This document shows, one piece after another, positions 1-22,407 of a stretch of 64,000 bases of DNA (the first letter of the stretch is position 1; each line of letters begins with the position of its first letter). Where the stretch lies: positions 26,275 to 90,274 of the forward strand of contig CAWFHZ010000016.1 of NCBI GenBank assembly GCA_963815785.1. The letters run 5' to 3'. Position numbers and translations under genes: made by a program. Source of the DNA: an uncultured Ignavibacteria bacterium. GTDB lineage: Bacteria > Bacteroidota > Ignavibacteria > Ignavibacteriales > Ignavibacteriaceae. The notes under the pieces were generated by a model. The model did not search any database and had not been told where the DNA came from. It saw only the letters and a list, made by a program, of their open reading frames with translations.

Positions 1-412
1 ATAATATAACTTTTTCAGTAGAAGGTTCTACAAATTTCAACATTAGTTTAGCATTTATTTCACCAAACGAACCATTGAAATATGTAATTTCTCCAAGCAA
101 AAAAGCACCTTGAGAAATAAATTTAGCTTTCAATTCCTCATTCAATTCCGAACGATTGATTATATGAAATAAATTTCTTGTCTTTAGTTCTCTTCTTAAA
201 ATGGCATTAACAGTATCAGCTTCCGGAATTCTAATATTATTGTTTTCTTTTTTAATAACTAAAGGAAGTAAATCAACATATTCCATTTTGGAAACAGATT
301 GCTGGTCTATAATTTCACTTTTACTTCCCATTAATGAAGTACCAACACAACCAGTAACAAATATTATGATTGCAAATGCAAAACTCAAAATCATCAATTT
401 TGTACATTTCAT
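1..412 (-). CDS. partial cassette ORF: lipoprotein (N-terminus in window, C-terminus beyond the left edge)
   Basis: My own minus-strand translation from the ATG at 412-410 reads MKCTKLMILSFAFAIIIFVTGCVGTSLMGSKSEIIDQQ... This gives a signal peptide with a lipobox Cys. The frame is open to position 1. The ORF is absent from the supplied track because it is open-ended. Confidence 0.55.
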   Translation of the reverse strand, partial: MKCTKLMILSFAFAIIIFVTGCVGTSLMGSKSEIIDQQSVSKMEYVDLLPLVIKKENNNIRIPEADTVNAILRRELKTRNLFHIINRSELNEELKAKFISQGAFLLGEITYFNGSFGEINAKLMLKFVEPSTEKVIL

Positions 413-432
413 TTTTTTGTAACTCCAAAATT

Positions 433-655
433 GCCTAACGGTGTTGCAACTAAAGCGGCGCCCAACAAATCCACGCCACCTTAGCCACAAACGCCAATAA
501 TTTTACAAATTGTATTTAACTTTCATCGTAAATACAATTTGTGATAATGTTATTTAGAACTAATCCCTTAAATAAAAATTTGAACGAAAATCATAAACTT
601 ACAATATTAAAAACGCTGCATCGATTATGCGGTCGCTTTGAGTTGCAGGTTAGGC
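433..655 (-). other. attC-like recombination site 1 (223 bp)
   Basis: GCCTAAC at 433-439 and GTTAGGC at 649-655. The arms gcctaacGGTGTtgcaactaaagcg and cgctttGagttgcaGgttaggc form an imperfect inverted repeat with a bulged base. A central 14-bp perfect hairpin lies at 505-518/529-542. Confidence 0.7.
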
Positions 656-658
656 AAT

Positions 659-1744
659 TTATTTTAGTAAAATAGATGAAACAAATCCTTGAACACCGGT
701 ACCAATATTTTGAATGCTCGTTCCATCCCATTTAAAAATACCGTTCACAGTTTTTCCATTAACAGTGGTAAATAAGCCTCCGACATACAAAAAGTCGCCG
801 GATGTATATAAGCTATTTGGCCAATTATCAAATGAGAACTTATTAAAATCCCAATCACTTCCGGTCCAAATTGCATAATATGGCAAATCATTTGAACCAT
901 TTGATTGACCCGCTAAATGGAGTTCATTTTTATACACTGTCGCCACATATATTCTGTTTGAAATGGCAGTACTATCGACCGATTGCCAAATACTGTTATT
1001 CCATTTTGCAATATTAGTAACCGTCACATTGCCACATTTACTAAAATTGCCAGTAGCGTATAACTCATTATTGAAAACCGTAAGTGTCATTATATAAGAA
1101 CCTGAATTAACCCCGCTTCCTACCGTATCCCAATTTACCCCATTCCATTTAGCGATATTATTTGCATTAAAATTTCCCGAATAGTTTATAGTAAACCAGC
1201 CGCCTGCATAAAGTTCATCATTATAAACACAAAGTGTATATACTTCATCTGAAAGTCCTTCACCAACTGAGGACCAATTTGTTCCATTCCATTTTGCAAT
1301 ATTATCAGCTTTAATGCCACCAGAGCTTGAAAACCAACCGCCAGCATAAAGTTCATCTTTATAAACTTTAAGGCTAGTTACTCTACCATTAATTCCACCA
1401 TCAACTGATGACCATTCTTTCCCATCCCACTTTGCAATATTTTTAGCTTCCTTCCCTCCAGCTGAATCAATGAATCCACCAACATACAATTCATTATTAT
1501 AGAAGGCCATACATTCTACATCTGCATTTTGCCCCGATATTCCGGTACTAAGTGCACTCCACTTACTTTCATTCCAAACAGCAATATTTTTTATAGATTG
1601 ATTGCCTGGTATGGTAAATCTACCACCAATGAAAAGTGAATCTGAAGGGGATGTGGTGTTCCCATCAATTATTTCAGTTGGAGCTTCTGATTTGCATCCG
1701 TAGAATATTATTGAAACTAAAAAAAGTAAATTTAATATTTTCAT
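659..1744 (-). CDS. cassette ORF: seven-bladed beta-propeller-like repeat lipoprotein
   Basis: Signal peptide with lipobox (LVSIIFYGC). About seven tandem repeats of about 47 aa carry the motif NIAKWNGxxWSxVGxG...VYNxELYAGGxF. The TAA stop lies 4 nt from the attC core. Confidence 0.75.
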   Translation of the reverse strand: MKILNLLFLVSIIFYGCKSEAPTEIIDGNTTSPSDSLFIGGRFTIPGNQSIKNIAVWNESKWSALSTGISGQNADVECMAFYNNELYVGGFIDSAGGKEAKNIAKWDGKEWSSVDGGINGRVTSLKVYKDELYAGGWFSSSGGIKADNIAKWNGTNWSSVGEGLSDEVYTLCVYNDELYAGGWFTINYSGNFNANNIAKWNGVNWDTVGSGVNSGSYIMTLTVFNNELYATGNFSKCGNVTVTNIAKWNNSIWQSVDSTAISNRIYVATVYKNELHLAGQSNGSNDLPYYAIWTGSDWDFNKFSFDNWPNSLYTSGDFLYVGGLFTTVNGKTVNGIFKWDGTSIQNIGTGVQGFVSSILLK

Positions 1745-1765
1745 AAATTACTCCCCATATTAGTT

Positions 1766-1992
1766 GCCTAACGATGTTGTGCCTAAGCTGCTGCCCAAAA
1801 CAACAATGCTGAACAAGAACACTACTGCAAATGATTTAGTAAACTGTGCTTAACTTTCTTCGCAAGCACAGTTTACAAGTTAATTAGTTAGAATGAACAC
1901 CTTTAACAAAAACCTTTTTACGGAACTACTGACTTAAAAATCTCAATAATGCCGAGTGCGAATTGGCAGTCAGCTTGAGGCACGGGTTAGGC
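1766..1992 (-). other. attC-like recombination site 2 (227 bp)
   Basis: GCCTAAC at 1766-1772 and GTTAGGC at 1986-1992. The arms gcctaacGATGTTgtgcctaagctgctgcc and ggcagTcagcttGaggcacGGgttaggc have the same bulge geometry as site 1 but different sequence. A central 13-bp hairpin lies at 1839-1851/1864-1876. Confidence 0.7.
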
Positions 1993-1993
1993 T

Positions 1994-4900
1994 TCAATTC
2001 TTCGCACCTTTTTTTAAATTACAATATTTATGACTTGCTTGTAAGTTTAAGAACCTATCTTTACCGCCAGGTCCTAGTGGTTTAATATGATCAATATGAA
2101 TTTCATCGTTAATTAGTAACTTATTCTCACAAATTGGACACAAACCATTTTGTAGCTTTATCAATTCAATTATTTCTTCTCTAGTCAAAGATATTTTTCT
2201 AATATCTTTTTGATATTTCTTCCGATATTCTAAAATCCTCTGATGAAATTGTTCGATTTGATAAGGATTTTCTTCTTTGCTTTTAACGTTTTTTATGCTC
2301 TCAAAAATATCTACCAAGTCTTTCTTTATGTTTGTACGATCACTTAGTACACGCGCTTGATTAATAAAATGAATTAGATACCAGAGTGTATAAAAATCTT
2401 GTAAGGTTCTTGAATACCATTTTTGATTTTTAACATTAAAAATTCGTGTTAATTCTTTAGCAAGGTATTCTGATTCAATATCTTGCTCTATTTCTTCATC
2501 GATTAAAATAGTTTTTAGCTTGCGGAGAAGTTGTTCTGTTGATTTAATGCTTTTTAGGAAATTTTGTTTTTCTTTTAAATCAATTGTTGCTGTATTTAAG
2601 ATTTTAGTAACATCAATTTTGCTCTTGACCCTTATATAAAGACCGGTTGATTTATGATGTATATCTAAGAATGGATAAAATTGATCCGAATCGAAATCAG
2701 TAAATTCATTTTTATATTCCAAGTAAGAAAATATAGTATACATTTCCTCATTTTTCATTCTAGTGTCATTTCGACTTTGTAGTAAGTAGAACCAATTATC
2801 AAATTTATTTACTAGAGACTTTATGTTGTCAATGATATCTTTATCAACGTATGAATTCCACATCTCAAAAGAATTTTCCTTTATTGGGTAGGGGCGATTG
2901 TTTAATCGAATAAATAAATCAACTGGGTTGAATTCAGGATTATATTTGCTGTCGATCATTATGAAAGATAGCGGGAAATCGTGAATTGCATCCTTTAGCT
3001 CTTCAGTTAGTTCGTCAAAAGTAAGGCCATTTAAATTCTCAAGAATTTTTAATTTAGTTAATCGAAAACCGGTTTTTTCAGATGTTACTCTATTACCTTT
3101 TTCATCAATAAATTCTTGGTTCATAAATCCTAAAATGGATAATATACGCTGTTGACCATCAATGATTTCATAAATTCCATCTTCACGTTGGAAAATAAAC
3201 ATTGGTGGTAACTTGATTCCTAAAAGTATGCTTTCAATTATTGCACTCGACTTTACCTTATTAATTACTTCCCCACGTTGATATACTGGGCGAACAAGAA
3301 ATTTTCTTCTCAACATCATCCGACAAATATCATTAATTGTCAACGGGAAAGGTTCCGGCTTATCAATACGTATGTTATCAAAACTGTCAAAGCTATATTC
3401 AACAGTACTCTCTTTATATGTTTTTATCTTCTTTCTAAATGATTGATTACTAGAAATATAAATATCGAAATTAACATTAAAGACCTTGCTGAAATAATCA
3501 GCAATTGTATTGTATCTTGTCATAAATTGACTATAAAGAAACTGACTTGAATCATCAATGAATGTTTCAGAATTTTTTCTAAAGAATTTAATTAATTCGG
3601 TTGTAAACCCGTTTGTAATCATTTTGGCAATATCTTTTTTTTCATTTTCAAGTATAGAAATTGCCCAATACAGAGTTTCATAAGCGTATCTAGTAATTTT
3701 TAAGTTGTTATTCTCGAATACTTCTTTTAGTTGCAATAGAATTTTCACTTTTTCAACGAAATTCTTAAATAGACTCATTGTATCAGTAATATTTTCAGAA
3801 AATCTATTATAGAAAACATCGAATATTTCTTTTTGCCGTGTCGTTGTTATTGGCATCTTTGTACAGATTAACAAAAATCTGATTTCTTGTAGCAATTTTT
3901 CGAGCGTTTCCTTTTTATCAAGTTTTTGTAAATCTGATTCAGCCGCGAATAAAGCTGTAATATTATGAAATAAGTTTTTATTCTTGGAAATGTGCTCTTT
4001 AAAATATTTTGTGGGCTCATCATTTATATAAATGGCTTTCTCAATTTCTACACGTTTTAAGGGTGTAATTCCAGAATTATATCTTCTAAATATTTCTTTT
4101 TTTAACATATCTATTGATTTTTCATCTAATCTTCTTTCATCAACCAAAGAAAATTTTATAATGCGTATTCTTGTTTCAATAAATAGTTCTTTTAATTTTT
4201 CCTCAAGTTCATCGAAAGTTTTTCTTTCCAAGAATTTTAATAAATACAAACCACTCTTATTTAATGAGAACTCATTTCTATGGAATCTTATTATTGTTTC
4301 TAATCTTTGTCGTCCGTCTATCACTTCCATTTTATTGTTTGATTCAAAAACAATTAATGGAGGGATTTCAGTGCCTATCAAAATGCTTTCAATGAAATAT
4401 GTACCCTTAACATTATCCCAAACATATCTTCGCTGATAGTAAGGTTCATAATTAATCTTATTGATGATGCGTGGAGAAAGAAGCGCATCAATTGTTTTGT
4501 CCCAAGTTTCAATTTTTAATAAATACCTAAAGATTTCTTGTATTTCTTTGTATTGTAAGAATAATTTTTCCTCAACCTCGTATGAGTAATCTGTTTCATC
4601 ATTCTCATCTAAAATTTTATTTTGACGATAGGATATAACTTGGTTATCCCGCGAACAAATTGGACATTTAGAATTTAAGTGAGTTCTATTAATTATTCGT
4701 GCCGGCCATTCATTAAGGCAATCTTTACATATCCACCAAACAATTTCATTACTTTTTGCTAAATAATCTTTGGGTGTATTTTTATTCTTTTTATAGTTCC
4801 ATTCTAAGGCAATTTCAGGATATAATGCAGCAACAGACAAGTTCTTTTCCATATTTTCTTTTGCGCATTCAGGGCATCCCATATCTGTTTCAGTCCTACT

Positions 4901-5293
4901 TCTAACAAAGGTATTCCATTCGTGCTTTGGGTTAGTCTTACATTGCCACCATACTCTTCTCACTCCTTTGGGTGCGACTTCATATGGGTTCAATCCTTCG
5001 TTTCGTGTTGGATGCCATTCTGCAAGTAGATTGGGATATAAGGCTGCAAGTGATTCGTCGGGATGAGTACGAAAGGTGGAACAATAAGGACATCCTTTAG
5101 TTTTTTTAGTACGATTGTATATAGTGGCTTCCCAAATATGTTTTGGATTTTTCTTGCATTTCCACCATACCTTTTTTGTTCCCCCCAAGCTAAGGGTATT
5201 TGGATCTAAATCACCATTCTTTTCATAAAACCATTCTTCTAATAATTCAGGATACTCTTTTGTAAATGGTGGTAATAATTTTCTTTTTGCCAT
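1994..5293 (-). CDS. cassette ORF: Zn-ribbon x3 / DUF262 (ParB-like nuclease, GmrSD N-terminal type) x2 / C-terminal HNH endonuclease
   Basis: Three N-terminal repeats have the form L..EW....N......VWWxC...HxWxxxxxxR.....CPxC. There are two DUF262 cores: YQRRYVW...VIDGRQRLETI, and YQRGEV...IIDGQQRILSIL followed by DLFIRLNNRPYPI. The C-terminus reads CPIC...HIDHIKP...HKYCNLKKG (HNH). The TGA stop lies 1 nt from the attC core. Confidence 0.8.
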   Translation of the reverse strand: MAKRKLLPPFTKEYPELLEEWFYEKNGDLDPNTLSLGGTKKVWWKCKKNPKHIWEATIYNRTKKTKGCPYCSTFRTHPDESLAALYPNLLAEWHPTRNEGLNPYEVAPKGVRRVWWQCKTNPKHEWNTFVRSRTETDMGCPECAKENMEKNLSVAALYPEIALEWNYKKNKNTPKDYLAKSNEIVWWICKDCLNEWPARIINRTHLNSKCPICSRDNQVISYRQNKILDENDETDYSYEVEEKLFLQYKEIQEIFRYLLKIETWDKTIDALLSPRIINKINYEPYYQRRYVWDNVKGTYFIESILIGTEIPPLIVFESNNKMEVIDGRQRLETIIRFHRNEFSLNKSGLYLLKFLERKTFDELEEKLKELFIETRIRIIKFSLVDERRLDEKSIDMLKKEIFRRYNSGITPLKRVEIEKAIYINDEPTKYFKEHISKNKNLFHNITALFAAESDLQKLDKKETLEKLLQEIRFLLICTKMPITTTRQKEIFDVFYNRFSENITDTMSLFKNFVEKVKILLQLKEVFENNNLKITRYAYETLYWAISILENEKKDIAKMITNGFTTELIKFFRKNSETFIDDSSQFLYSQFMTRYNTIADYFSKVFNVNFDIYISSNQSFRKKIKTYKESTVEYSFDSFDNIRIDKPEPFPLTINDICRMMLRRKFLVRPVYQRGEVINKVKSSAIIESILLGIKLPPMFIFQREDGIYEIIDGQQRILSILGFMNQEFIDEKGNRVTSEKTGFRLTKLKILENLNGLTFDELTEELKDAIHDFPLSFIMIDSKYNPEFNPVDLFIRLNNRPYPIKENSFEMWNSYVDKDIIDNIKSLVNKFDNWFYLLQSRNDTRMKNEEMYTIFSYLEYKNEFTDFDSDQFYPFLDIHHKSTGLYIRVKSKIDVTKILNTATIDLKEKQNFLKSIKSTEQLLRKLKTILIDEEIEQDIESEYLAKELTRIFNVKNQKWYSRTLQDFYTLWYLIHFINQARVLSDRTNIKKDLVDIFESIKNVKSKEENPYQIEQFHQRILEYRKKYQKDIRKISLTREEIIELIKLQNGLCPICENKLLINDEIHIDHIKPLGPGGKDRFLNLQASHKYCNLKKGAKN

Positions 5294-5315
5294 ATCTCAC
5301 TATTTCCTTTAAGAA

Positions 5316-5764
5316 GCCTAACGAAGTTGCCGATAAGCGGCGCCCCAGAACTATTTTATTAGCCTAATTATTGTACCATAGGCTAAAATATTTGAACCAA
5401 TAGAGTAACCAGAAGTAAAGTTTTCTTTATCAACTTTAATATGAATAATTCCATCACCCCCAGAATTAGATGCATTTTCCATTAGTTCTTTAATAAGATA
5501 ATCAAAAATATCAGTCATTTTTTCCGGTTTTTTTTGAACTAAAGTGCTAAAGAAAGCACTAGTAGTTCCAATTACTTCGTAATTTTCTTTAATATCCCCA
5601 GTGCTTGCAATTATGTCTTCCATTTTGACTCCATAAATATTAAGAAGGTTTTTATTTAATTTATTTATACACTGCTAAACTGCAATGTTTATTAATCTTA
5701 CTATACTTAAGAACTACTCAAATCCCGTTTATATTACGGCGTCCGCTTGATTGGCAGGTTATAT
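5316..5764 (-). other. attC-like site 3, with a 90-aa ORF inside its central region (449 bp)
   Basis: GCCTAAC at 5316-5322 and GTTATAT at 5758-5764. The arms taacGAAGTtgccgataagcggcgcc and ggcgTccgcttGattggcaGgtta pair with the same bulged C/A geometry as sites 1 and 2. About 390 nt, including ORF 5351..5623, separates the arms. Confidence 0.55.
5351..5623 (-). CDS. small YbjQ/UPF0145-like protein (tentative), embedded between the arms of attC-like site 3
   Basis: The 90-aa ORF follows the pattern I..T.....YEVIG...(n)...A...GGDGIIHIKVD...ILAYGTIIRL. This resembles the YbjQ-family layout (TT..i.GYE..G ... GAnAv ... yGTAV). The resemblance was judged by eye only. Confidence 0.4.
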   Translation of the reverse strand: MEDIIASTGDIKENYEVIGTTSAFFSTLVQKKPEKMTDIFDYLIKELMENASNSGGDGIIHIKVDKENFTSGYSIGSNILAYGTIIRLIK

Positions 5765-7039
5765 TTTTTTTACGAACTTCAAATAGTTAACAATACTTCT
5801 GTAGCATATTAATTCTATATCAATAAATGGATCTACATCATAAAGTGTTAAATATATTTCATACCCTTTCCAGTCTCTTAAACTGCTACTCCCGCCGTGT
5901 AGAATTTCATTTCTTAAATCGAAAAGTCTATCAGCTTTTTCATCTATCTTTTTATCAATATTTTTTAATGAACATAATCCATTTCTAATACTAGTTTCTA
6001 CATTGTTCTTTTCACCAAATAAAGCATCTAAAGCAATATAAAAGTGCATAAATCTTTCGATATCTGAAGAAGCAAGTAAGCCGTAATTTATAAACTGCGT
6101 AGCTGTCTCAAATCTTTTTTTTGATTCTGAGTTTAATCTATTGATGGATTTAATATAGGAATCAATTTCTTCCAGAGTTTCTATATCTACTTCAAGATGA
6201 GATGCAAAAGATGGCTGCAAAAATGGGAGTGAATTTATTTGTAGATTAAAATCTACAGTATCACTTCCGGGAAATAATATACAATATCTGGGCGTATCAT
6301 TTTCAATATAATTTTGTAAGGAATCATAAGAAGTAATTTTGAATGAACAAACAATGGCAATAAAATCTCTTACAGTAAATGTTAATTTTCTTCTGGCTCC
6401 TTTTTCAGTCCCATTTGTTTTGAATATTAACCAAGTCAAAGGAATATTGTATGCAGCAGGGATTATAGACCTATTGTAATTTTGTCCATTACTAGGATTG
6501 AAGCCGTTAGAAGATTTAAAATCACGACTTATCTTTTCCCAATTCATTGCATCAGATGGCGCTAATAATGCTAAATCTAAACTTTCAAAAATATAAGAGT
6601 TTGATTTTATTATGGTTAATGGAAATAAATTCATCCAATCAATTATTGATGACATTAGCTTATTCTCAATAATACAATATAATTTTTTTGATACATTTTT
6701 GTAATCTGAATTAATACTTACTTCCAACAAATTATCTGCTTCAGATTTAAAAACTAAATCAGAATTAAAAATATCTTTATTAAATCCATTATTTTGAATT
6801 GTATCTATAATTACTGTCGAGAAATATTCATAATCACCACCCAAAAACCTTTTGTCAGATGAAATAATCATTTTAGACAAATCATTTCGAAGCTTAAAGC
6901 TTTTTTTTGTGTACCACCACTGCAAACCAATATTACCAATTAAAAAACTTGTTGGGAAACAGTCATTATAACTCATTTTATGAAGTTTTATTTCACGTAA
7001 TAAAGCTAATATTTTACCATATATCTTTTCTTTACCCAA
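5759..7039 (-). CDS. cassette ORF: protein with a C-terminal HEPN-like domain (Rx4H motif)
   Basis: 426 aa with a TTG start. The C-terminal helical region FMHFYIALDALFGE ... DRLFDLRNEILHGG carries the R-x4-H HEPN signature (RNEILH). The N-terminal 300 aa is unrecognised. The TAA stop overlaps the GTTA of the attC core. Confidence 0.55.
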   Translation of the reverse strand: MGKEKIYGKILALLREIKLHKMSYNDCFPTSFLIGNIGLQWWYTKKSFKLRNDLSKMIISSDKRFLGGDYEYFSTVIIDTIQNNGFNKDIFNSDLVFKSEADNLLEVSINSDYKNVSKKLYCIIENKLMSSIIDWMNLFPLTIIKSNSYIFESLDLALLAPSDAMNWEKISRDFKSSNGFNPSNGQNYNRSIIPAAYNIPLTWLIFKTNGTEKGARRKLTFTVRDFIAIVCSFKITSYDSLQNYIENDTPRYCILFPGSDTVDFNLQINSLPFLQPSFASHLEVDIETLEEIDSYIKSINRLNSESKKRFETATQFINYGLLASSDIERFMHFYIALDALFGEKNNVETSIRNGLCSLKNIDKKIDEKADRLFDLRNEILHGGSSSLRDWKGYEIYLTLYDVDPFIDIELICYRSIVNYLKFVKKI

Positions 7040-7368
7040 CTTGTATTGTTTTTTAATTCTTGAAAAATATAACTATTAATTATGCCGCCAAATATCCGTA
7101 TAACTATCCCGCGGCAAGAATGTTATATTCCACTTAAAACTTTTATTATTGGATATTTTCAAAACTTTTTGCGGCATATCATTCCACATATTTAAGAATG
7201 TTATCCAGACAGTTTCTTCGCGGGTCCCTTACTGAATTCATCAACAACAATACCCCGTGACTTCTTAGTATTTTCAACAAAATTCATTTATAACATAAAT
7301 CAATTTTGAATTACAGGCAATATTTTTTTTAATTTTATTATTATTTTTATTACCAACTAAATTTTATA

Positions 7369-8232
7369 GTGATTATGCTCCATATCGGCACTTGTTCTTG
7401 GAAATACGATTTCTGGAAAGGAATCATCTACCCCGATAAAGAAAAATTTAATTTCCTTGAAGAATATTCTCAGCATTATGATACTGTAGAAGTAGATCAG
7501 TGGTTCTGGAGTTTATTCGAAGTTGATAAAATTCTGCTCCCAAATGGTAAAGATGTTAAGGATTACACTAAATCAGTTCCAGATGATTTCAAATTCACAA
7601 TCAAAATACCAAACAGCATCACACTTACTCATTTCTACAACCGGAGTAAAAAAGAACCTCTCAAAGAAAATCCTCACTTCTTTGATCCTGAATTATTCGA
7701 TTCATTTCTAGGCACATTAAAACCAATGAAGAAAAAACTTGGACCTTTAATGTTTCAGTTCGAATATCTTAATAAGCAAAAAATGAGCGGACTCCCTGAA
7801 TTCATAGATCGTTTCGAAGCATTCCTCGAACAGCTTGATAATAAATACCAATATGGTGTAGAACTCCGGAATCCGAATTATCTTAAAAAACCATTTTTTG
7901 AATTCATTCAAAGAAATAATCTTATCGCAGTATTACTCGAAGGCTACTATATGCCTCCTGTAAAAGAAGTATTCAAAGAATTTAAAGATTACATAGAAGA
8001 TACTGTTGTAATAAGACTTCACGGACCGGATAGATCAGGAATGGAAAAGGCAACAGGTAAAGTCTGGAATAAAATCGTTGCCCCAAAAGACGAACAATTA
8101 AATGATATTGCAGAAATAGCTCATTATTTCCTCAATAAAAAAATGGATGTTTACTTAAACGTAAACAACCATTACGAAGGTTCAGCTCCGCTAACTATAC
8201 AGAAAATTCAAAAGCTAATTCCGAACAAATGA
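7369..8232 (+). CDS. DUF72 family protein
   Basis: Motifs seen: HIGTCSWKYDFWKGIIYP, VIRLHGPDR and VYLNVNNHYEGSAPLTIQKI. These are typical of the DUF72 (YecE-like) family. The true start may be the ATG at 7375. Confidence 0.75.
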   Translation: MIMLHIGTCSWKYDFWKGIIYPDKEKFNFLEEYSQHYDTVEVDQWFWSLFEVDKILLPNGKDVKDYTKSVPDDFKFTIKIPNSITLTHFYNRSKKEPLKENPHFFDPELFDSFLGTLKPMKKKLGPLMFQFEYLNKQKMSGLPEFIDRFEAFLEQLDNKYQYGVELRNPNYLKKPFFEFIQRNNLIAVLLEGYYMPPVKEVFKEFKDYIEDTVVIRLHGPDRSGMEKATGKVWNKIVAPKDEQLNDIAEIAHYFLNKKMDVYLNVNNHYEGSAPLTIQKIQKLIPNK

Positions 8233-8696
8233 GAACCAGACAAAAATATATTTATGACTATGAAACTAATTTTCTTGTAAGATTCCGAGATGAGAAGGGA
8301 AGATATATACAGAAGGCCTTTGGCTATGCATCAAAAAGTAAAAAAGAAGTTTTGGCTAAAGCAATTAAATGGCGCGATGAAAATCTTCCTGATATTCGTA
8401 AAACCGGAAAAAGAATGCTGCAGAGTAAACCCCAAAGGAATAAAAAAAATAAACTGCCTGCTGGAATCAGCCTTTCATTCAAGTATAAAGATACAAGGAA
8501 TAAAAAGTATAAATACCCAATTCTAAGTATTTCAGCGGGAAAAGATGAAAAAGGTAAGGCACTTATAAAAACTATTCGAATAAATAATTATGCAAATAGT
8601 GATGCGGCGATTGAAGCTGCAATAAGGATAAGAGTGAATTTGCTAATCGAAAATAATAAGACTGAATTACAAAGATTTGAGAATAAGAAAGGTTGA
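8229..8696 (+). CDS. hypothetical basic protein (possible tandem AP2-like DNA-binding repeats)
   Basis: 155 aa, Lys/Arg-rich. Its ATGA overlaps the DUF72 stop. The stretch F.VRF.D..G.....FGYASKS..EVLAKAIKWRDE resembles the AP2/integrase-type fold. The functional call is weak. Confidence 0.4.
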   Translation: MRTRQKYIYDYETNFLVRFRDEKGRYIQKAFGYASKSKKEVLAKAIKWRDENLPDIRKTGKRMLQSKPQRNKKNKLPAGISLSFKYKDTRNKKYKYPILSISAGKDEKGKALIKTIRINNYANSDAAIEAAIRIRVNLLIENNKTELQRFENKKG

Positions 8697-8880
8697 TCCA
8701 GGTATGTCTTTGCCTTGTTGATCTGAAGCTTTGGGAGGATCTTTTATATTAGATTTCCAACTTTTCTGAGAACATCATCTTTAAGCTGAACATAAATCTG
8801 GTAGTTGAGATAAGAAGGCAGCGCCCCTCTCACAATAAAAAAGATTAATAAACTATTAGGGGAATAAATTCGGGCTGTAT

Positions 8881-8921
8881 GCCTGCCTGCCTTAGGCACG
8901 GCCTGCCTGCCGTAGGTACGG
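8881..8921. repeat. tandem 20-nt palindromic repeat (gcctgcctgccNtaggNacgg x2)
   Basis: Read directly: gcctgcctgccttaggcacg followed by gcctgcctgccgtaggtacgg. Related cctgcc...ggcagg palindromes occur at 57120-57142, 57268-57288 and 63913-63935. Confidence 0.7.
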
Positions 8922-9873
8922 TTATTACCATAACACTATAAACCAAGCCGTACTTGTCCCGAAGGTATAGCCAACATCATTGCGGGGAAAACTTAGTTGG
9001 TGTTTCTAATCGTTTTACATTTAGCTCATTCATTCATCAGCACAATTCCATTTTTTTTATTACCCCATCTACTTGATAGCTCCACTTCGTTCCGCTATCA
9101 AGCTATTCCACTTAATCACAAAGCTAACCCTCGCTTCTTTATTCAATCGCTAAAAGTACGTTTGCTGTAAAAATTTCATAAAATATTATTTTCAATAAAA
9201 TCATTTCATATCAGTTCAATCAGTTAAATCTGCGTCCTATTATCTCTTAACTTTTTTAATTCAATATTTACTTACCGCAAACTTCAAATCGTTTCTGCAG
9301 GACCTGTCCGCCTCTGGCGGAAAAGTTTTTATGCGCTTGTTTTATTATCCGGCATTCGCCGTATCCAGCCCTCATTTATCTTAGGGCATTAGAATTTCAA
9401 AGCATCAATTTATTTCCGTTGCTCCTGCTGCTTCACTTCGCCGGGTCTGGTCGCCCCGGCTCGCTCTTTGCACTTAAGCCCTCACTTATTCACGATGTCC
9501 TAAGCTCGTTCTTAAGCCGTCGCAACTTTCATTATACTAATTTTATTGTTTTTTGTACGTAATTGTACGGATGTATAACCCCAATTGATGAATTATATTA
9601 TGATCGGATATGGGTTTATTTGGGTGTAATGATTCCTGATTTATTATACTTTTTATTCTCCCTTTATTAAGATTTTTCCACCCCCTCGGGTCGCGAAAAC
9701 GCGCATAGATGCCCTTGCGTATGCAGGGGTATCTGTTTATTTACGGTCAATAATTACACTTTAATTAGTAGTTATTACGGTTGTCACATATTTTTAATAA
9801 AAATATTTAACATTTTCTTAGGTATAATTATTGATTTAATTAATAATTCTTCAACCCAAAAGGAGTATCTCTT

Positions 9874-10320
9874 ATGAAACATTTTCTACTTATTGGCTTT
9901 TTCTTAATAAGCGTTCAGTTATTAGCACAGGATAATTCCGGTATTTATTCAAACCCCTATTTGCGATATAATTCGAATAATAATTATAATTCAGATTTAT
10001 TCAATTCTAACAATTCTCGTCCGTATAAAGATCTATACGGGAATAGTTATAAATATTATGAAAATATGTTTAAAGATAAAGATAATGATGGTTTAACAGG
10101 TTATTTTGATAATAACGATGCTAATAGTGATCCTTATAAATCATTATTCAAATCTAATAGTACATATACTCCCAATTATCTTAATCAGGATAATAATTAT
10201 AACTCTAATTATAATTCTTCCTATTATGATTTTAATAGAAGTAAAACTATATACACTGGTCCACAAGGTGGTCAGTACTATATCAACAGTAATGGCAATA
10301 AAACTTATATTAAAAAATAG
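9874..10320 (+). CDS. secreted low-complexity Asn/Tyr-rich protein
   Basis: Signal peptide MKHFLLIGFFLISVQLLAQ. The rest is N/Y/S/D-rich and contains a DKDNDG stretch. An aggag RBS lies upstream. Confidence 0.55.
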   Translation: MKHFLLIGFFLISVQLLAQDNSGIYSNPYLRYNSNNNYNSDLFNSNNSRPYKDLYGNSYKYYENMFKDKDNDGLTGYFDNNDANSDPYKSLFKSNSTYTPNYLNQDNNYNSNYNSSYYDFNRSKTIYTGPQGGQYYINSNGNKTYIKK

Positions 10321-10485
10321 TTTGCCACTTGACGTGAGATGAACTCACTTCATCAATACATTATCAGCCAGTATTACATAAGAAAAATTATGCAACTAAC
10401 TTTTTCATCTTTACTATTTATTTACTTTCTGTCGAAGTCGGCATAACTTTGGCTTATGTAAACTCGGCACGGCGCAAATAGCAGT

Positions 10486-10512
10486 GTCATTCTGAACTTG
10501 TTTCAGAATCTC
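10486..10512. repeat. intergenic copy of the GTCATTCTGAAC..GTTTCAGAATCTC palindromic element
   Basis: Sequence gtcattctgaacttgtttcagaatctc. The same unit occurs inside ORF 16569..16841. Confidence 0.7.
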
Positions 10513-10728
10513 ATAGTATAATCCTGTTTACAAAACATTTTTCAATAAATCGTTTCGTATCTATTCAGTTCATCTTTCGTTCCGTTCAGGTGCAAGTGTT
10601 AAACTGCACCTTCACTCCACTCTCATTTTTTTTGGGTGTAAGCATCTAGCTCCAAAATATTTTAATTTGTTTTGTAAATATTGTCAAAAAGTAGTATCGT
10701 ATAATAAATAGTTTATAATATATTTTTA

Positions 10729-11388
10729 ATGCCTGATACCGAACTCCTTTATAAGTTAACAGAAGGTTTCTCAACTCAAGCAAAAAATACTAATCGGTAT
10801 TGGATATTACTTGCATCAGCTTCAATTTTCTCTTTTATCGCGGAATCAAAATGCGATCTGATAGACTTACCCTTTGGTCTGGGAAGTGTAAGTCAAATTG
10901 ATTTTTATTCTATTATTGTATTCATTTTATCTGTTTTGATAATTGCATTTGCTTCTGCTCAATTACAAGCATACCGTACAAGGCAACTGATCCAGAAGTT
11001 AATTGAGAAAGAGACATCTAATAAATCAGAATATATAGATGATTTTCATATACAAGATATTTTTGAATCCATTGTTACCCCCACTATAAATAGAGTAGGT
11101 CCTATAGCACAATTTGCACAAGGCAGGAATCAATTCTTTGGTGATAAAAAACCTTCCAAATTTTGGCGCCTCTTATCTACCAGTCTGTACTTAATATTAA
11201 AAATGGTAAGTATGATGGTCATATATTTGTTACCAGCTCTTGCTTTGATAGAGAGTACATCGTTTTTTAATCAGATTGGTGGTAGTAATAATTGGTATAT
11301 CCCAAATTTTGTCTATTGGATTTTTATTATTGTTTCTTTTATTGTTTTATTCATCTCATTTAATTCCGAAATTATTTTTCCTAACTAA
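10729..11388 (+). CDS. hypothetical multi-pass membrane protein
   Basis: 219 aa with about four hydrophobic segments. No recognisable family. Confidence 0.5.
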   Translation: MPDTELLYKLTEGFSTQAKNTNRYWILLASASIFSFIAESKCDLIDLPFGLGSVSQIDFYSIIVFILSVLIIAFASAQLQAYRTRQLIQKLIEKETSNKSEYIDDFHIQDIFESIVTPTINRVGPIAQFAQGRNQFFGDKKPSKFWRLLSTSLYLILKMVSMMVIYLLPALALIESTSFFNQIGGSNNWYIPNFVYWIFIIVSFIVLFISFNSEIIFPN

Positions 11389-11445
11389 GGGGTTGAAGAA
11401 AATTTATATAAATAAGTAAATATGTATTGTATCTCAAAATCCCCA

Positions 11446-12528
11446 TCACGTAAGATTATACCTCTTCTTAAAATATTCCTTACTGAAATTCACTCCCATA
11501 TCAGTAAGTACTTTATCCCGTTCAGCACTATGGTCAACAACAGCTTCCTTCTTATTCAGCTTTACTCTCGGCGCATCAATCTTTCCGTAATTAAGTTCAG
11601 TATAATATCTCAGTAATTCATTCAGCGCTCTCTCTACAAGCTTCTTATCGGTAATGCCTAAATAGTTAAGCATCTCTTTGTGTATCTCCGCAGCTTTATA
11701 TGAACCGCTCTTTTGTGTTTCTGTTGTCAGTGTAACAGTAAGTACAGCTTTGGATATTTCCGCATTATGAAAACCAACCAGGTTCTGGTATAACCCGCCC
11801 ACATCGTAGCTCGGTGATTCTTTTATCTCTATTTCTTTGCCTTCTTCAAATACACTTATCGTATCCTGCACCATCTGCTCAAGATCTTCCAGCAGTTGTG
11901 CTTTTTCTGCAGGTGTTGCACCGGTAGCATATCTGCCAATAAGATACGGCATTCCAAACCTCTCCATCATTAACTGCCAGTACTCAATCCCTGCTCTCTT
12001 AAAAGTTACAGGCCAGTAGCATCTGCTTAATACTTTCTCTCCGTAAGGATTAACATAAGTCGGCTGGTATTGTGTTACTATAAATTTATAGTCAGGAAGC
12101 TTTTCACCTTCTTCAAAAAGATAATTGCCGTATCTCATTTTTCTTAGTCTTAATTTATTTTCTTTGTCGTAGATAAACCATTCCTGCGGTTTGCCTATAA
12201 TATTAACCGGTACAATCTCACTCCCGTCAAGTTTCCAGTCAATCTCACCGACAGAAAAACCAAACAGCACTGCATCAAGTACATTGTTCATTATCTCCCC
12301 AAGCGGCATCATTCTAAGTATATCAATGGTGCGGTTCTTTATCTTTTCGTCCTGTTCATAATCAACTTCCCATCCCATCTGCATTACCTGCATTTTCCTT
12401 TGCTGTATAGCAGCAATCAAATGAGCATCACTCAGTAAATCCCTCAGTATACTGAAGTCATAATTATTTTCAGCGAGTATCTTGTCCGGGTCAGGCAGTG
12501 AAGTATAAAGATGTTCATAAACCTGCAT
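11446..12528 (-). CDS. phage portal protein, Mu gp29-like (DUF935), probably N-terminally truncated
   Basis: 360 aa. The motif FHNAEISKAVLTVTLTTETQKSGSYKAAEIHKE resembles the conserved DUF935 portal core. Portals of this family are usually longer. 350 nt of noncoding junk lies upstream. Confidence 0.65.
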   Translation of the reverse strand: MQVYEHLYTSLPDPDKILAENNYDFSILRDLLSDAHLIAAIQQRKMQVMQMGWEVDYEQDEKIKNRTIDILRMMPLGEIMNNVLDAVLFGFSVGEIDWKLDGSEIVPVNIIGKPQEWFIYDKENKLRLRKMRYGNYLFEEGEKLPDYKFIVTQYQPTYVNPYGEKVLSRCYWPVTFKRAGIEYWQLMMERFGMPYLIGRYATGATPAEKAQLLEDLEQMVQDTISVFEEGKEIEIKESPSYDVGGLYQNLVGFHNAEISKAVLTVTLTTETQKSGSYKAAEIHKEMLNYLGITDKKLVERALNELLRYYTELNYGKIDAPRVKLNKKEAVVDHSAERDKVLTDMGVNFSKEYFKKRYNLT

Positions 12529-12877
12529 TTTATCGCGTGTTGCAAAATCACTTAAAAGTCTGTTTCTTATAATTTTTTTTCATTTCTCTATTCCGCTTTT
12601 GGTTTTATCCGTTTTAACTTGTTTCTTAGTTCCTTTATGATACCTTATAGTAGCCTTCTAAAAGAGGTTTGAGGTTTATAAGGATGGTGAGTAATTTGCC
12701 TTGCGCTCTAAAATTACTGCCATCCTTCCTTTTTATCTCTGATTTATTTCCTCTTTGCCTGCTGAAGGTTGCCTACTGCATACTCATTATTGCCTACTTG
12801 CCCTATATTTCCTGTACTTGCTTCTAAATTGTTTCCTCGGTAAATGAATCACAGGTTCATTACTTATTATTCTTTTT

Positions 12878-14129
12878 TCATCTTTCGCATAGTTCAGAAA
12901 TTGAGCTCATACTATCCACCGCATCGTCAAATTCACCATCGGGAAATTCTTCGCATTCATCAATAAAATCTTTTACCCACACTTCACCTTCAGGCAGATA
13001 AACTTTCCCCGCTTCAATCAGTGGAGTAACAGAATGCACCCTCGCTATTTTATCTGTATCAACTTTAATAGCTTTAATCGGTATTCTGCTTCCTCTTTTC
13101 ATTTCCTGTATAAGTGATTGCCCGCTTGCTTTATCCTCAACAAGCACTTCATTCGGATTATAAAGCTTATATAATTCTTTGCATTTCTTTTTTAGTTCAG
13201 GAAACTCAACTCTGTCTTTCCAGAGATTAACCAGGTAAAATCCATCGGGTGTAATAAACCACGTAGTACAAACCGAAAAATCATTTCCTTCTTTATCCTT
13301 AAAAGCAGTATCCCAGCTTTGTATTTTTTTAAGTATTCTTTTTTGTGTTATGTATTCAGGATTATAATATCTCCACCATTCACTTTTTATTATTCCGCTT
13401 GTTTCTTTATCAACAAACTTTCCAAATACTTCCTGGTCTCTTAATGCAGGAGAAATTTCTTTTACAAGTTCATCAATCTCATTCTTATCAATCAAAGGAT
13501 TATCGTAGGATGAAAAATTAAAACTCTCCCATTGCGATTTTCATCCCCTCCACTGGAGGGGTCCGGCTTTAGCCGGGGGTGGGTTTATCTGCACTTTGAC
13601 CTCTCTCAAACAGTTCATAGAACAGGTGCTTCTCCCTCTTCCCTTTAACATTCTTACCCTTCGGAGTTCCGCCTATCAGTACATCTGCCTTATAATCCAG
13701 TATCATTGGTCTTATAGATTCATTCCAAAGACTTCTGTTCTTAAGCACAATACCGGCTTCATTTATAATAATAAGCGCATAACCAAATCCCTCAATATTC
13801 TCAGGTCTGTCCGCACTTCGGAAATCGCATACAGAACTCATTATCTTAAGATCATTCCTGTTGCTTCTGTACTTCCATAAGTTTTTAGGTAATTGTTTTA
13901 GCGTAGGAGTAAAATATCTCTCAACATATCTGTCTATGTTCCCGTATATGGTATCAACCCAAAGCACCGGCGAAACTCCATCCATCATCTGATCAATAAC
14001 ATAATTTGCAAATCCTCTCGTCAGCCCGAAACGTCTTCCTTTGGCAATTACCTTATATCTGGCTTTGCTCTCAAAAAATATCTTCTGCTGATTTTTATGG
14101 TAAGTAATATCTAAGCTGATTTCTTTCAT
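12878..14129 (-). pseudogene. phage terminase large subunit, split by a palindromic element insertion
   Basis: The N-terminal ATPase fragment is 13569..14129 (KGRRFGLTRG, LIIINEAG). The C-terminal nuclease fragment is 12878..13540 (WESFNFSSYDNP..., DTAFKDKEGNDFSV, VEDKASGQSL, EFPDGEFDDAVDSMS). The two fragments are in different frames and are separated by the element at 13544-13584, which supplies an in-frame TAA. Confidence 0.8.
13544..13584. repeat. GC-rich double-hairpin element (tcccctccactggagggg tccggctttagccgg gggtgggt) inserted in the terminase gene
   Basis: Palindromes cccctcc/ggagggg and ccggc/gccgg stand out in otherwise AT-rich coding sequence. A related copy lies at 49789-49822. 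Confidence 0.75.
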
Positions 14130-14476
14130 TTAACAGTCTTCCGGGTAATCTTAATATCATATTCTCCCGTCTCGTCTATCTTTTCAGCTTGTCCCAGGTA
14201 TTGCTTTCCTAACCAGATCAGCATAACTACATTTCCCTGCATAGCAACGGAAATCTGTTTCTTCTTTAACCGTTCTCTAAGGTTAGCTTTCCCTTTTATG
14301 ATATTTTTCTCAAAGTTCCGTTTCAGTGTGCTGTCATCATAACCAAGTGCTTCAGCAATTTCTTTATTGGTTAATCCGTATGAAGCCAGTTTTTCTATTT
14401 TCTGTTCTTCTGTTAATTCAACTTTTTTCTTCGGTGGCTTTTTCATAAGTGGCGTTTTCCTTCCAAAATCAAACAA
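14126..14476 (-). CDS. phage terminase small subunit-like HTH protein
   Basis: 116 aa with an HTH (LTNKEIAEALGYDDSTLKRNF). It lies immediately upstream of the large terminase and overlaps it. Confidence 0.6.
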   Translation of the reverse strand: MFDFGRKTPLMKKPPKKKVELTEEQKIEKLASYGLTNKEIAEALGYDDSTLKRNFEKNIIKGKANLRERLKKKQISVAMQGNVVMLIWLGKQYLGQAEKIDETGEYDIKITRKTVK

Positions 14477-14605
14477 TCGATATAGATAAAATCTATTATA
14501 TTTTAAATATAATAAATTCTATTGATATTTATTAGGCAAAATGTTATATTTAATTAAGTTTTTTAGGCTATGATATACGATTTGTTAATAAAGTAAGGAT
14601 ATTCG

Positions 14606-15621
14606 ATGATGAATGAATTTGAAATTTTTAAGGCAGGGACTCATACTTCAAGTAATGGAACCACTAAAGACTATTCCATAAAAGACTTGGAGTTTATCGC
14701 CTCTTCTTATAATCCCGCAGAAAATGAAGCTCCTATTGTAATCGGTCACCCCGTAGATAATTCACCTGCTTACGGATGGATTGAATCTCTTAAGGTTGCA
14801 GGCGACAACTTCTTGCAAAACCTAAGGAAGTTATCAAGGAGTTTTCTGAAGCAGTTAAAAAAGGATTATATAAAAAACGAAGTATCTCTCTTGATAAAGA
14901 TGGAAAGTTAAGACACGTAGGTTTTCTTGGCGGTGCCGCTCCCGCTGTAAAAGGTTTAGCTGATATTCAGTTTAACGAACCTTCAGCAGTTACTTTTGAA
15001 CTTGATATTGAGGGGCTTAAAGAAAACGCAAAAGATGAACAGGTTATAGATAAAATTGATAACACTTCGGACAAGGATATCAAAGAACCGGTAACAGATG
15101 ATAAGCCCCCTCTTTTTTCTGAACAGTTAAACCAGATACGCGATAATCTTATTGAGCTTAATAAAAAGTTTGTAAGCACTCCTGATAAAACTAATACTTC
15201 TGATATTTCTAAAATCCAGTCTGCTGTTGATGAACTAAGCTTCAAGATTAACTTCTCTGAGTTTGAACCAATGCTTAATGATAAATTATCTTCCGGTTCT
15301 CTTACTCCCGCAATGAAGAAATCTGTAATGAGTCTCTTCGAATATCTCAACACTCAGAACTTCTCTGCTGAATATGATTACTCAAAATTCAGGAATGATG
15401 TTAAGAAGCTTCTTACTGATTTTGTTGAGTCGGTTCCAAAGATAGTCTATTATGAAAACTTTGCGGAGAAACCCGATGAACCTGATAATGATAGTAATAG
15501 TTTTTCCGGCTATACGCTTGATGAGGAGTCTGCTGCACTTCACAAAAAAGCTAAAACAATAATGAGGAAAGATAATATCTCCTACGAAGCAGCAGTAATG
15601 AAATTGTCTAAATTAAATTAA
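14606..15621 (+). pseudogene. phage scaffold/prohead-protease-like protein with one frameshift (about 14800-14815)
   Basis: The first frame gives FKAGTHTSSNGTTKDYS..APIVIGHPVDNSPAYGWIESLKV. After a -1 shift the reading continues KPKEVIKEFSEAVKKGLYKKRSISL..RHVGFLGGAAPAVKGL... and joins track ORF 15271..15621 with no further stop. Confidence 0.65.
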
Positions 15622-20727: not shown

Positions 20728-21570
20728 ATGGAAACAATAATATTAAACGTAATTAAAGAAACTCTTCAGATTACTTTACTCATAACATTAATGATGATTG
20801 CTGTTGATGCAATAAATATCTGGTCACGGGGGAAAATATCCTTATTATTGAAAGGTAAGGGAAAACTTCGTCAGTATGTTGTCTCTTCATTTATCGGGAC
20901 AATACCCGGCTGCTTTGGCGGGTTTACAAATGTAACTTTCTATATGCATGGACTTATCAGCTTCGGAGCTTTAGCGGGTTCTATGATTGCTGTATCGGGA
21001 GATGAGGCATTTGTCATGCTTGCCATGTTTCCTAAAACTGCAATTCTTCTTTTTGCTGTACTTTTTGTAATCGGGATTTTTGGAGGAAAACTGACAGATA
21101 TTATAGTAAAGAAATATAAAATAATTACCTGCAGTGACTGCCCTGAATTGGTCGTCCATAATACGGAAAGAAACTTAAGACATTTTTTAAAAGAACATGT
21201 GCTTGAACATATTATTAAAAAGCATATATGGAAAATAGCTATCTGGACATTTGGTGCATTGCTGGTTGTTGAATTCGGGTTTCAATATTTTCATCTTGAA
21301 AAAATAGCATCGGAGTATAAACTCGCTTTATTATTCCTGGGTGCTATAATCGGACTTATTCCTGAATCCGGACCACATTTAATTTTTGTATCGCTGTTTG
21401 CTAACGGGTTAATACCTTTTTCGATCCTCCTTACCAGCTCAATAGTACAGGATGGACATAGTATGCTGCCATTGCTATCGTATTCTTTAAAGGATTCAAT
21501 TAAAATTAAAGCATTTAATTTTGTTTTCGGAATATCAATCGGGTTAATTCTGTTATTACTTGGTTTCTGA
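20728..21570 (+). CDS. polytopic membrane protein, putative metal (Mn/As-type, ArsP_2-like) transporter
   Basis: About 280 aa from METIILNV, with about 8-10 TM segments. The C-terminal GLIPESGPHLIFVSLF..G.IPFSILLTSSIVQDGHSMLPLL resembles the 10-TM putative heavy-metal exporter family. Confidence 0.5.
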   Translation: METIILNVIKETLQITLLITLMMIAVDAINIWSRGKISLLLKGKGKLRQYVVSSFIGTIPGCFGGFTNVTFYMHGLISFGALAGSMIAVSGDEAFVMLAMFPKTAILLFAVLFVIGIFGGKLTDIIVKKYKIITCSDCPELVVHNTERNLRHFLKEHVLEHIIKKHIWKIAIWTFGALLVVEFGFQYFHLEKIASEYKLALLFLGAIIGLIPESGPHLIFVSLFANGLIPFSILLTSSIVQDGHSMLPLLSYSLKDSIKIKAFNFVFGISIGLILLLLGF

Positions 21571-21840
21571 TTTAATGGAATAATATTCCAGTACATCTTT
21601 AAAAACAGGAAAACTATTATAACCACAAAGGGATTACTTCTAAAATGGTTTTTCTAAAAGAATATAAAAATGAGATAATTTTAGATATCATCTACGCTTT
21701 TTAATTTCAAATCTTTATCATCTGTTTTTTGATAAATAAATTTACCCATCTGGATTTAAGATTTAGTTCTACATATCGAAAAATTATTATATCTTTTGTT
21801 TTAATTAGTAATTTGGTATTTTTCAAAAACTTGAAATCCA

Positions 21841-22407
21841 ATGCAGTATAACTCAGAAGAGCTAACACTTTTATTAAATAAGAGTCTATCGGGAGATAAA
21901 TCCTCGTTGGATAAAATTCTTCCGATTGTATACAATGAATTACGAAAGATTTCTTCCAAATATCTTCACGAAGAACACCAACCTCACACACTTCAAACCA
22001 CAGAACTTGTGCATGAAGTTTACCTGAAGCTTATTGGCAGCCAGAAGATTAATTGGGAAAGCAGAGCCCATTTTTTCGGAATAGCCGCAAAAACAATGAG
22101 AGAAATTCTTGTTGATCATGCACGAAGACGAAATTCCCAAAAGCGCGGAAACGGCATAAAATCTTTATCCCTTGATGAAGTCTTCAATGTATCGGGTGAA
22201 TTTGACGAACAGATTATAGCACTTGATGAGGCGCTTAAAAAATTTGAAATGATTGAGGAGCGTCCCGGAAAAATTGTGGAACTACGATTTTTTTCGGGGT
22301 TGTCGATTGAAGAAACTGCTGAACTTCTCAGCATTTCTCCCGCAACTGCAAAAAGAGATTGGGTTTACGCCAAAGCCTGGCTTTACAGAGAAATGCGAAC
22401 ATCCTGA
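21841..22407 (+). CDS. ECF-type RNA polymerase sigma factor (kinase-associated ECF class)
   Basis: Motifs seen: LPIVYNELRKISSKYL..E...HTLQTTELVHEVYLKL, WESRAHFFGIAAKTMREILVDHARRR, and a region 4 HTH (LSIEETAELLSISPATAKRDW). Confidence 0.85.
   Translation: MQYNSEELTLLLNKSLSGDKSSLDKILPIVYNELRKISSKYLHEEHQPHTLQTTELVHEVYLKLIGSQKINWESRAHFFGIAAKTMREILVDHARRRNSQKRGNGIKSLSLDEVFNVSGEFDEQIIALDEALKKFEMIEERPGKIVELRFFSGLSIEETAELLSISPATAKRDWVYAKAWLYREMRTS

Follow-up and report, generated by a model that had tools for sequence, protein, structure and literature searches.

A cassette-borne, stand-alone two-domain protein with a probable HEPN domain in an uncultured Ignavibacteria bacterium

We analysed a 64,000-nucleotide (nt) stretch of DNA (hereafter the window) on contig CAWFHZ010000016.1 of an uncultured Ignavibacteria bacterium (assembly GCA_963815785.1; whole genome 3.95 Mb, 35% GC, 95.7% complete), with attention to one minus-strand open reading frame (ORF) that lies in an array of attC-like sites and encodes a protein of 426 amino acids (aa) (Table 1). 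The ORF runs from a TTG start (7039–7037) to a TAA stop (5761–5759), and this start is supported because homologues of the protein start at the same place, with M-x-KEKI(Y/H)GKI at the matching position. A scan for sigma-70 promoters and terminators returned a number of sites not above chance. With the 426-aa protein as query, no match was obtained at E ≤ 1 in Pfam or PADLOC, and NCBIfam and the PDB sequences returned noise only. The original prediction for this gene, made from the sequence alone, was a stand-alone HEPN-type protein in a small defence island, with a helical C-terminal end carrying an R-x4-H motif in an RN...HG context and an N-terminal 300 aa that match nothing; the last point is true, and at the single-sequence level it holds for the whole protein.

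Table 1. Position of the gene, its domains and the surrounding cassette features in the window.
Feature	Position	Strand	Remark
Coding sequence, 426-aa two-domain protein	5759..7039	-	Belongs to a family of ~235 clusters (50% identity), conserved over its full length
N-terminal alpha/beta domain, aa 1-285	6185..7039	-	No detectable relatives outside the family; faster-evolving; putative sensor/auto-inhibitory domain
C-terminal helical HEPN-like domain, aa 286-426	5762..6184	-	Based on model, conservation and profile comparisons
R376-N-E-I-L-H381 (Rx4H) codons	5897..5914	-	End of predicted helix 365-380
Invariant D338 codon	6026..6028	-	In the FYIALDALFG helix (predicted HEPN helix 2)
R''/L'' arm of attC-like site, ATATAAC CTGCCAATCAAGCGGACGCC...	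5733..5764	-	Overlaps the stop codon; site family D18
L'/R' arm of attC-like site, ...GGGGCGCCGCTTATCGGCAAC TTC GTTAGGC	5316..5351	-	Site family D3
GTTATAT box	7067..7073	-	Exactly the reverse complement of the gene's own R'' ATATAAC; 27 nt upstream of the start codon
90-aa ORF, weakly YbjQ-like	5351..5623	-	Between the two attC-like arms; no conserved association with the HEPN-like gene

Relatives of the 426-aa protein numbered 18 in a word-indexed search; when 1.84 billion cluster representatives were searched exhaustively with phmmer, 235 scored E ≤ 1e-3 and 64 of these E ≤ 1e-30. Nearly all of the phmmer relatives are 410–470 aa long and align with the 426-aa protein end to end. We conclude that the family is genuine and conserved over its full length, with a fixed two-domain architecture. 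When 98 full-length representatives were aligned (mean column identity 25%), D338, G342, R376 and H381 were the only invariant residues; G382, W390 and Y396 were 99% conserved, and P404, D407 and R309 were conserved in at least 90% of the sequences. The residue that follows R376 is S in 50 members, N in 36, C in 11 and H in one. The original prediction had staked its reading on conservation of the Rx4H residues among homologues, and since R376 and H381 are 100% conserved at so low an average column identity, the motif is not a chance occurrence. Mean identity to the 426-aa protein is 34% in the C-terminal domain versus 21% in the N-terminal domain, and the latter holds no invariant polar residue among the 98 homologues. 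Such a pattern would suit a conserved catalytic domain to which a variable domain for sensing or regulation is attached. The sole family model to match was phrog_23812, a viral protein family of unknown function, which recognised 95 of the 98 members. With no matching model in Pfam, NCBIfam or PADLOC, and an unannotated PHROG only, the family and its N-terminal domain appear to be undescribed.

The two domains are also distinct in the AlphaFold model, which is confident at full length (predicted local distance difference test score, pLDDT, 90.1; predicted template modelling score 0.84) and for residues 280–426 alone (pLDDT 93.3). Residues 1–285 are modelled as a mixed alpha/beta domain. For these residues, nothing was found in Pfam, NCBIfam or PADLOC, nor in the PDB, which was searched with profiles as well as with the single sequence, a full-length Foldseek search of the PDB and BFVD gave no significant match for this or any other part, and hhalign gave no match to the N-terminal region of ApeA; a role as sensor or auto-inhibitor is putative. 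The C-terminal ~140 aa are all-helical, which bears out this part of the original prediction. Helices are modelled at 304–322 and 326–341, the latter containing FYIALDALFG and D338, and a short insert helix (347–357) stands between the D338 helix and the motif helix (365–380), which ends ...LFDLRNEIL so that H381-G-G opens the next loop; a short helix (393–400) and the final helix (404–425) follow. The end of the presumed catalytic helix, DRLFDLRNEILHGG, is encoded at 5891–5932 of the minus strand, where the codons of R376 (5912–5914) and H381 (5897–5899) give the exact Rx4H spacing, with N after R.

HEPN domains form up-and-down bundles of four helices and carry an Rx4-6H motif. This motif sits where helix 3 ends, its R is followed by a polar residue, any second acidic residue that is conserved belongs to helix 2, and helices 2 and 3 are often separated by an insert (Anantharaman et al., 2013; PMC3710099). 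Judged by the model, the C-terminal domain of the 426-aa protein appears to satisfy all four of these positional rules: its motif closes helix 365–380, S, N, C or H follows R376 in every homologue, the invariant D338 sits in helix 326–341, where it aligns with the E of ALESL in Ec4ApeA, and the insert helix occupies the permitted place.

Similarity searches returned HEPN families and structures repeatedly. When the 98 members were scanned singly against Pfam, 41 families were weakly matched and four of them were HEPN families, namely HEPN_RiboL-PSP (PF18735; 8 of 98 members, best E 7.2e-5), HEPN_Apea (PF18739; two members, best E 0.018), HEPN_Cthe2314 (two members) and HEPN_MAE_28990 (one member). 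The HEPN clan comprises ~35 of the 24,736 families in Pfam, from which ~0.06 HEPN families would be expected by chance among 41. A profile of the C-terminal domain picked Ec4ApeA (9hxm) from the PDB (E 0.33) in two collinear pieces, which pair the FIALDAL and YWSALESL helices and the LFDLRSELVHG and LYLLRNTIVHN segments. The hhalign comparison with 11 aligned ApeA-type proteins of the same phylum extended over the whole domain (117–119 columns; P 2e-4 to 4e-4, probability 34–44% with one column setting), and its score of 28.0 was higher than those of the reversed control (11.5) and of all 30 block-shuffled controls (14–26). In a Foldseek search of the PDB with the isolated domain, the highest-probability matches were 2hsb (annotated HEPN), 2q00 and HepT (6m6u).

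The statistics of these searches nevertheless weigh against a HEPN assignment. The Pfam HEPN matches are confined to 13 of the 98 members and are all sub-threshold; by bit-score conversion, even the best member falls below the PF18735 gathering cut-off of 28.4 bits, and the 426-aa protein itself has no PF18735 match at E ≤ 1. Against a home-made PF18735 alignment from 15 genomes, hhalign aligned the motif helix only (24–25 columns, P 0.01–0.03 with -M first), or 44 columns with P 0.002 when -M 50 was used. The ApeA comparison fell to P 3e-3 with the other column setting, its probability was just 10–44% overall, and the two Rx4H motifs are left out of register, so that the alignment rests mainly on helices 1–2. 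The Foldseek matches of the isolated domain were non-significant (E 0.8–3; template modelling score 0.34–0.47), and generic four-helix bundles scored likewise. No search reached conventional significance for homology to any named HEPN family. A bridge to PF18735 through a 468-aa PF18735-positive protein (L030) was tried and rejected, L030 not being a family member.

On this evidence we consider the C-terminal domain likely to be HEPN, because of its active-site geometry and conservation more than because of alignment statistics. The HEPN identity in the original prediction is thereby upheld in its geometry and in the recurrence of HEPN families and structures below threshold; significant homology to a named family was not reached, and the Abi-like or ApeA-like membership it offered cannot be claimed. 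As Pfam and PADLOC define the ApeA and RiboL-PSP families, the 426-aa protein lies outside both. The alternative that survives best is an unrelated helical bundle with a convergent Rx4H-like motif, or a non-cleaving HEPN fold that binds a ligand or RNA or plays another accessory role. The uniformly sub-threshold similarity measures and the mis-registered Rx4H in the ApeA alignment would fit this alternative, but we think it unlikely: the only four residues invariant in 98 sequences are the expected HEPN active-site residues at the expected positions, and the four HEPN families among the weak Pfam matches far exceed the chance figure. Non-catalytic HEPN domains do exist, although they usually lose the motif (PMC3710099).

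We asked whether the gene has a conserved partner. For this, 38 loci from named genomes were collected and the ORFs within 5 kb were compared all-against-all in the 37 genomes other than that of the window, which included Microcoleus, Fischerella, Acidobacteriota, Thermoanaerobaculia, Pirellulales, Phycisphaerae and Pectobacterium as well as Pseudomonas, Psychrobacter, Lysobacter, Pseudoalteromonas, Halanaerobium and Sulfurospirillum. Apart from synteny among near-identical genera, no neighbour family was common across the 37 loci. Because no conserved partner was found there and the gene forms a one-gene cassette in other phyla (see below), the stand-alone reading, already part of the original prediction, is well supported.

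One alternative is an addiction (toxin-antitoxin) module by which the array is stabilised: the protein would be its toxin, and the 90-aa ORF or an unrecognised RNA its antidote. HEPN toxins with protein or RNA antitoxins are common, toxin-antitoxin cassettes are the most frequent defence-type systems in integrons (10.1101/2024.07.02.601686), and the 90-aa ORF lies inside the same attC-bounded unit. However, the 90-aa protein has two homologues only (78% and 67% identity, both 90 aa), neither of which adjoins a family member; the 37 loci share no neighbour, and the one-gene cassettes of other phyla leave no room for a partner. The flanks of 33 family genes and of the gene in the window showed no conserved tandem repeats of the ToxI/AbiF type, and positions 1–10000 of the window contain no Rfam match. 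Both the 90-aa ORF as antitoxin and an RNA antitoxin or other non-coding RNA were rejected on these grounds, so the small antitoxin or non-coding RNA raised by the original prediction was not borne out, and we regard the addiction module as quite improbable. The genomes of the two 90-aa homologues are without such an attC-like site, and in one of them the homologue lies downstream of a RE_Bsp6I restriction gene.

The remaining alternative pairs the gene with the adjacent cassette gene (1994..5293, minus strand), whose product, with three zinc ribbons, two DUF262 domains and an HNH domain (zinc-ribbon x3 / DUF262 x2 / HNH), is NsnA/GmrSD-like and confirms the DUF262-HNH neighbour of the original prediction. 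A two-component system on the PD-T4-2 model (DUF262 plus PF18735-type HEPN) is very hard to credit: the neighbour protein matches PADLOC PD-T4-2_A (E 5.6e-14), PD-T4-2 is listed with both DUF262 and PF18735 HEPN domains (PMC10952713), RiboL-PSP-HEPN genes have been reported in operons with ParB-like genes, and the two genes lie on one strand 466 bp apart, but a complete attC-like site and another ORF stand between them, which are therefore separate mobile units, phmmer with the neighbour protein found a DUF262 gene within 5 kb in 0/37 homologue loci, and neither the 426-aa protein nor its family matches a PD-T4-2 model. With no shared neighbour and no DUF262 near homologues, the pairing was rejected at the family level. 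A DUF262 gene beside a weakly PF18735-like HEPN gene does mirror the PD-T4-2 domain pair, without family-level co-occurrence, and the adjacency is probably a coincidence.

We next turn to the vehicle of the gene. In an Acidobacteriota metagenome-assembled genome, two 199-nt attC sites (L039:9760-9958 and 11268-11466) enclose the family gene and no other ORF, and an integron integrase gene, intI, scoring 456 bits and above cut-off, lies ~42 kb from the cassette if contig C2 is contig_2141, as the coordinate ranges fit. In Motiliproteus coralliicola the family gene stands between attC sites of 90 and 55 nt, and two further homologue genomes have single attC-like sites. A 49.8-kb IMG/VR contig (L091) contains a Mu-like prophage (2701–14765) that encodes proteins of the MuA transposase, MuB and Mor late-activator types; its family member (7962–9248) occupies a slot typical of accessory genes, with the late activator on one side and the genes for endolysin, terminase and portal on the other. 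We conclude that the family moves on integron-type cassettes and on one prophage. Within the organism's own class the family was found in 2/251 genomes searched, that of the window and one with a decayed remnant. The remnant (L078, G173:C4:69889-70107), from the same order, retains 80 C-terminal codons with two TAA stops and is evidence for gain and decay of the gene among relatives.

The attC-like sites of the window's array lie on the minus strand and consist of R'' GCCTAAC or ATATAAC, bulged L''/L' arms and R' GTTAGGC. The site after the HEPN-like gene is atypical in its length (~450 nt) and in having an ORF between its arms. The two arms nevertheless pair across ~380 nt in both the minimum-energy and the centroid fold, and the ATATAAC...GTTAGGC arms share their bulge pattern with two neighbouring sites, as expected, like the GTTRRRY core, of an attC site; the sites that delimit the cassettes of the original prediction are real. 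On the other side of the gene, the GTTATAT box, as the complement of the gene's own R'', is of the kind expected at a cassette 5' end (TTRRRY), with one position off the RRR consensus, and its distance from the start compares with 20–24 nt in the other cassettes, an arrangement whose chance we put at ~0.02. The box would mark the 5' boundary of the cassette, and the unit would then extend from ~7072 to 5322. Upstream of the gene no attC of the local type was found, and 7055–7260 folds no better than shuffled sequences (z -1.4). The same segment, a possible attI-like end of the array, contains the inverted repeats TATGCCGC/GCGGCATA and repeated ATAAC/GTTAT boxes, and local attC arms are absent from it.

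No integron integrase (IntI, TIGR02249) was found in the 95.7%-complete genome, where the best score was 87 bits versus a cut-off of 265, and the array is therefore CALIN-like, i.e. an integrase-less attC cluster. The attC 3' arm GGGC.GC.GCTTA....CAAC..CGTTAGGC is repeated at C7:32074-32104, C14:37769-37799 and, to the left of the window, C16:25943-26147; given these further copies and no integron integrase, the genome has several integrase-less attC loci. Two sites of the array (433–655 and 1766–1992) are unusually long (~222–227 nt) and contain a central hairpin, and those of the Acidobacteriota genome are long as well. Resemblance of the L'' arms (TGCC..AAGC..G.C.GC) between the window and that genome hints at a long-attC class shared among environmental phyla. 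About 1.5–6 kb left of the window (C16:20000-24900) there is a tyrosine recombinase split into overlapping ORFs (21246–21635 and 21560–22204), with a 785-aa protein downstream that was judged by eye to be a primase/helicase; the region resembles the decayed remains of an integrative element that borders the array at its far end.

The array comprises at least six cassettes. Two of these, with the HEPN-like gene and the DUF262-DUF262-HNH gene, are defence-like, and the remainder encode a beta-propeller lipoprotein, other small lipoproteins and unknowns, so that the small defence island of the original prediction holds for two cassettes only. In other genomes, the neighbours of family members include TIR proteins, whose genes are among the nearest neighbours in the Acidobacteriota genome, and DarT-Macro; among 116 immediate neighbours at 31 loci there are type IIG restriction-modification, MADS mad2/mad3, PDC-M04A/B, PDC-S03, AriA/Old/GajA-type, bSEFIR and DrmMI genes. 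The association of the family with defence genes is suggestive only.

Among known systems, ApeA is the closest in design. It is a single-protein HEPN abortive-infection nuclease that cuts tRNA anticodons and is activated by deoxydinucleotides in a ligand pocket away from the active site (bioRxiv 10.64898/2026.01.26.701840). Both ApeA and, on the present assignment, the 426-aa protein are single polypeptides (430–500 aa) in which a C-terminal HEPN domain follows a non-catalytic N-terminal part, and both are encoded by stand-alone genes; ApeA is the best profile-profile match of the C-terminal domain, over whose whole length it aligns, and the helix-2 AL(D/E)xL and helix-3 LRNxxxH signatures are common to both. 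In contrast to ApeA, the 426-aa protein has no match to PF18739, ApeA_NTD1 or the PADLOC ApeA models, and only the C-terminal domains align. The N-terminal and Mid domains of ApeA are mostly helical, whereas the N-terminal domain of the 426-aa protein is alpha/beta, and the ~100-aa insertions that split the HEPN domain of ApeA are absent from the latter.

RiboL-PSP-HEPN, the HEPN type of PD-T4-2, PD-T4-5 and PD-T7-3/DARNA, gave the most frequent weak Pfam match and shares RNxxxHG at the helix end, but the matches stay under the Pfam cut-off and the similarity is limited to the motif helix. DARNA, which single-stranded DNA switches on, carries HEPN at the N terminus and, at the C terminus, a helical domain that senses DNA, unlike the 426-aa protein. 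Esos and Taranis are single-gene HEPN cassettes that protect Vibrio against phages (10.1101/2024.07.02.601686). As with Esos, Taranis/AbiJ-like and AbiV cassettes of Vibrio chromosomal integrons, there is one HEPN-type gene per attC-bounded cassette here, with the same expected role, and the "integron cassette HEPN" family (PDB 3jrt; Anantharaman et al., 2013) uses the same genetic vehicle. The likeness lies in the vehicle, and no relationship in sequence emerged: Taranis matches Pfam Abi_C, in contrast to the 426-aa protein. The Vibrio cassettes are, moreover, gammaproteobacterial, whereas the present array belongs to a genome with no integrase and has unusually long attC-like sites. HepS (HEPN Solo), from the Gifsy-1 prophage, is an anticodon nuclease activated by a phage tail-tip protein, which it senses directly (PMC13043305). 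Like the present family, with its member in a Mu-like prophage, this abortive-infection protein is a partner-less HEPN on a mobile element; it is, however, short and essentially single-domain (its homologue search excluded proteins above 250 aa) and has no detectable sequence similarity to the 426-aa protein.

Taken as a candidate, the gene is a credible one-gene anti-phage or growth-arrest module, and we lean towards the view that it encodes a self-contained, auto-inhibited two-domain HEPN RNase for abortive infection. A metal-independent RNase site would be formed by the invariant R376, H381 and D338 and the small polar residue next to R376; as in other HEPN enzymes, two subunits would probably come together to complete this composite site. 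The N-terminal alpha/beta domain (~285 residues), which evolves fast, would most likely keep the nuclease inactive until a signal is sensed, most plausibly one derived from a phage; by analogy with ApeA, DARNA and HepS, the released C-terminal domain may then cut tRNA anticodon loops or mRNA, so that translation would stop and the infection abort. What we infer in this proposal is the RNase activity of the protein, its dimerisation and auto-inhibition, its trigger and its role against phages. Several results count against it: the family is absent from the known and candidate systems of PADLOC, phage and plasmid collections yielded nothing to tblastn with two family members as queries, and many neighbours of homologues are housekeeping genes (such as enolase, glutamine synthetase, GMP synthase, thymidylate synthase).

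A more specific version of this proposal, which we hold only tentatively, is a hitherto unrecognised single-protein anti-phage system. Its N-terminal domain would be an infection sensor of a new type, acting directly on a minimal HEPN RNase to turn it on, and one-gene integron cassettes and prophage morons would be the form in which the system passes from phylum to phylum. No principle would change with this proposal, as both abortive-infection HEPN proteins encoded by single genes and integron cassettes with HEPN genes are on record. If it is true, an unannotated family that reaches from Cyanobacteria to Proteobacteria and Acidobacteriota would join the short list of one-protein HEPN immune effectors, with a sensor domain unlike any described, and such compact sensor-plus-RNase proteins, being easy to test, would be good subjects for learning how infection is detected. 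The storage of phage-defence genes in integron arrays would then extend past Vibrio to low-GC environmental bacteria and to arrays that have no integrase.

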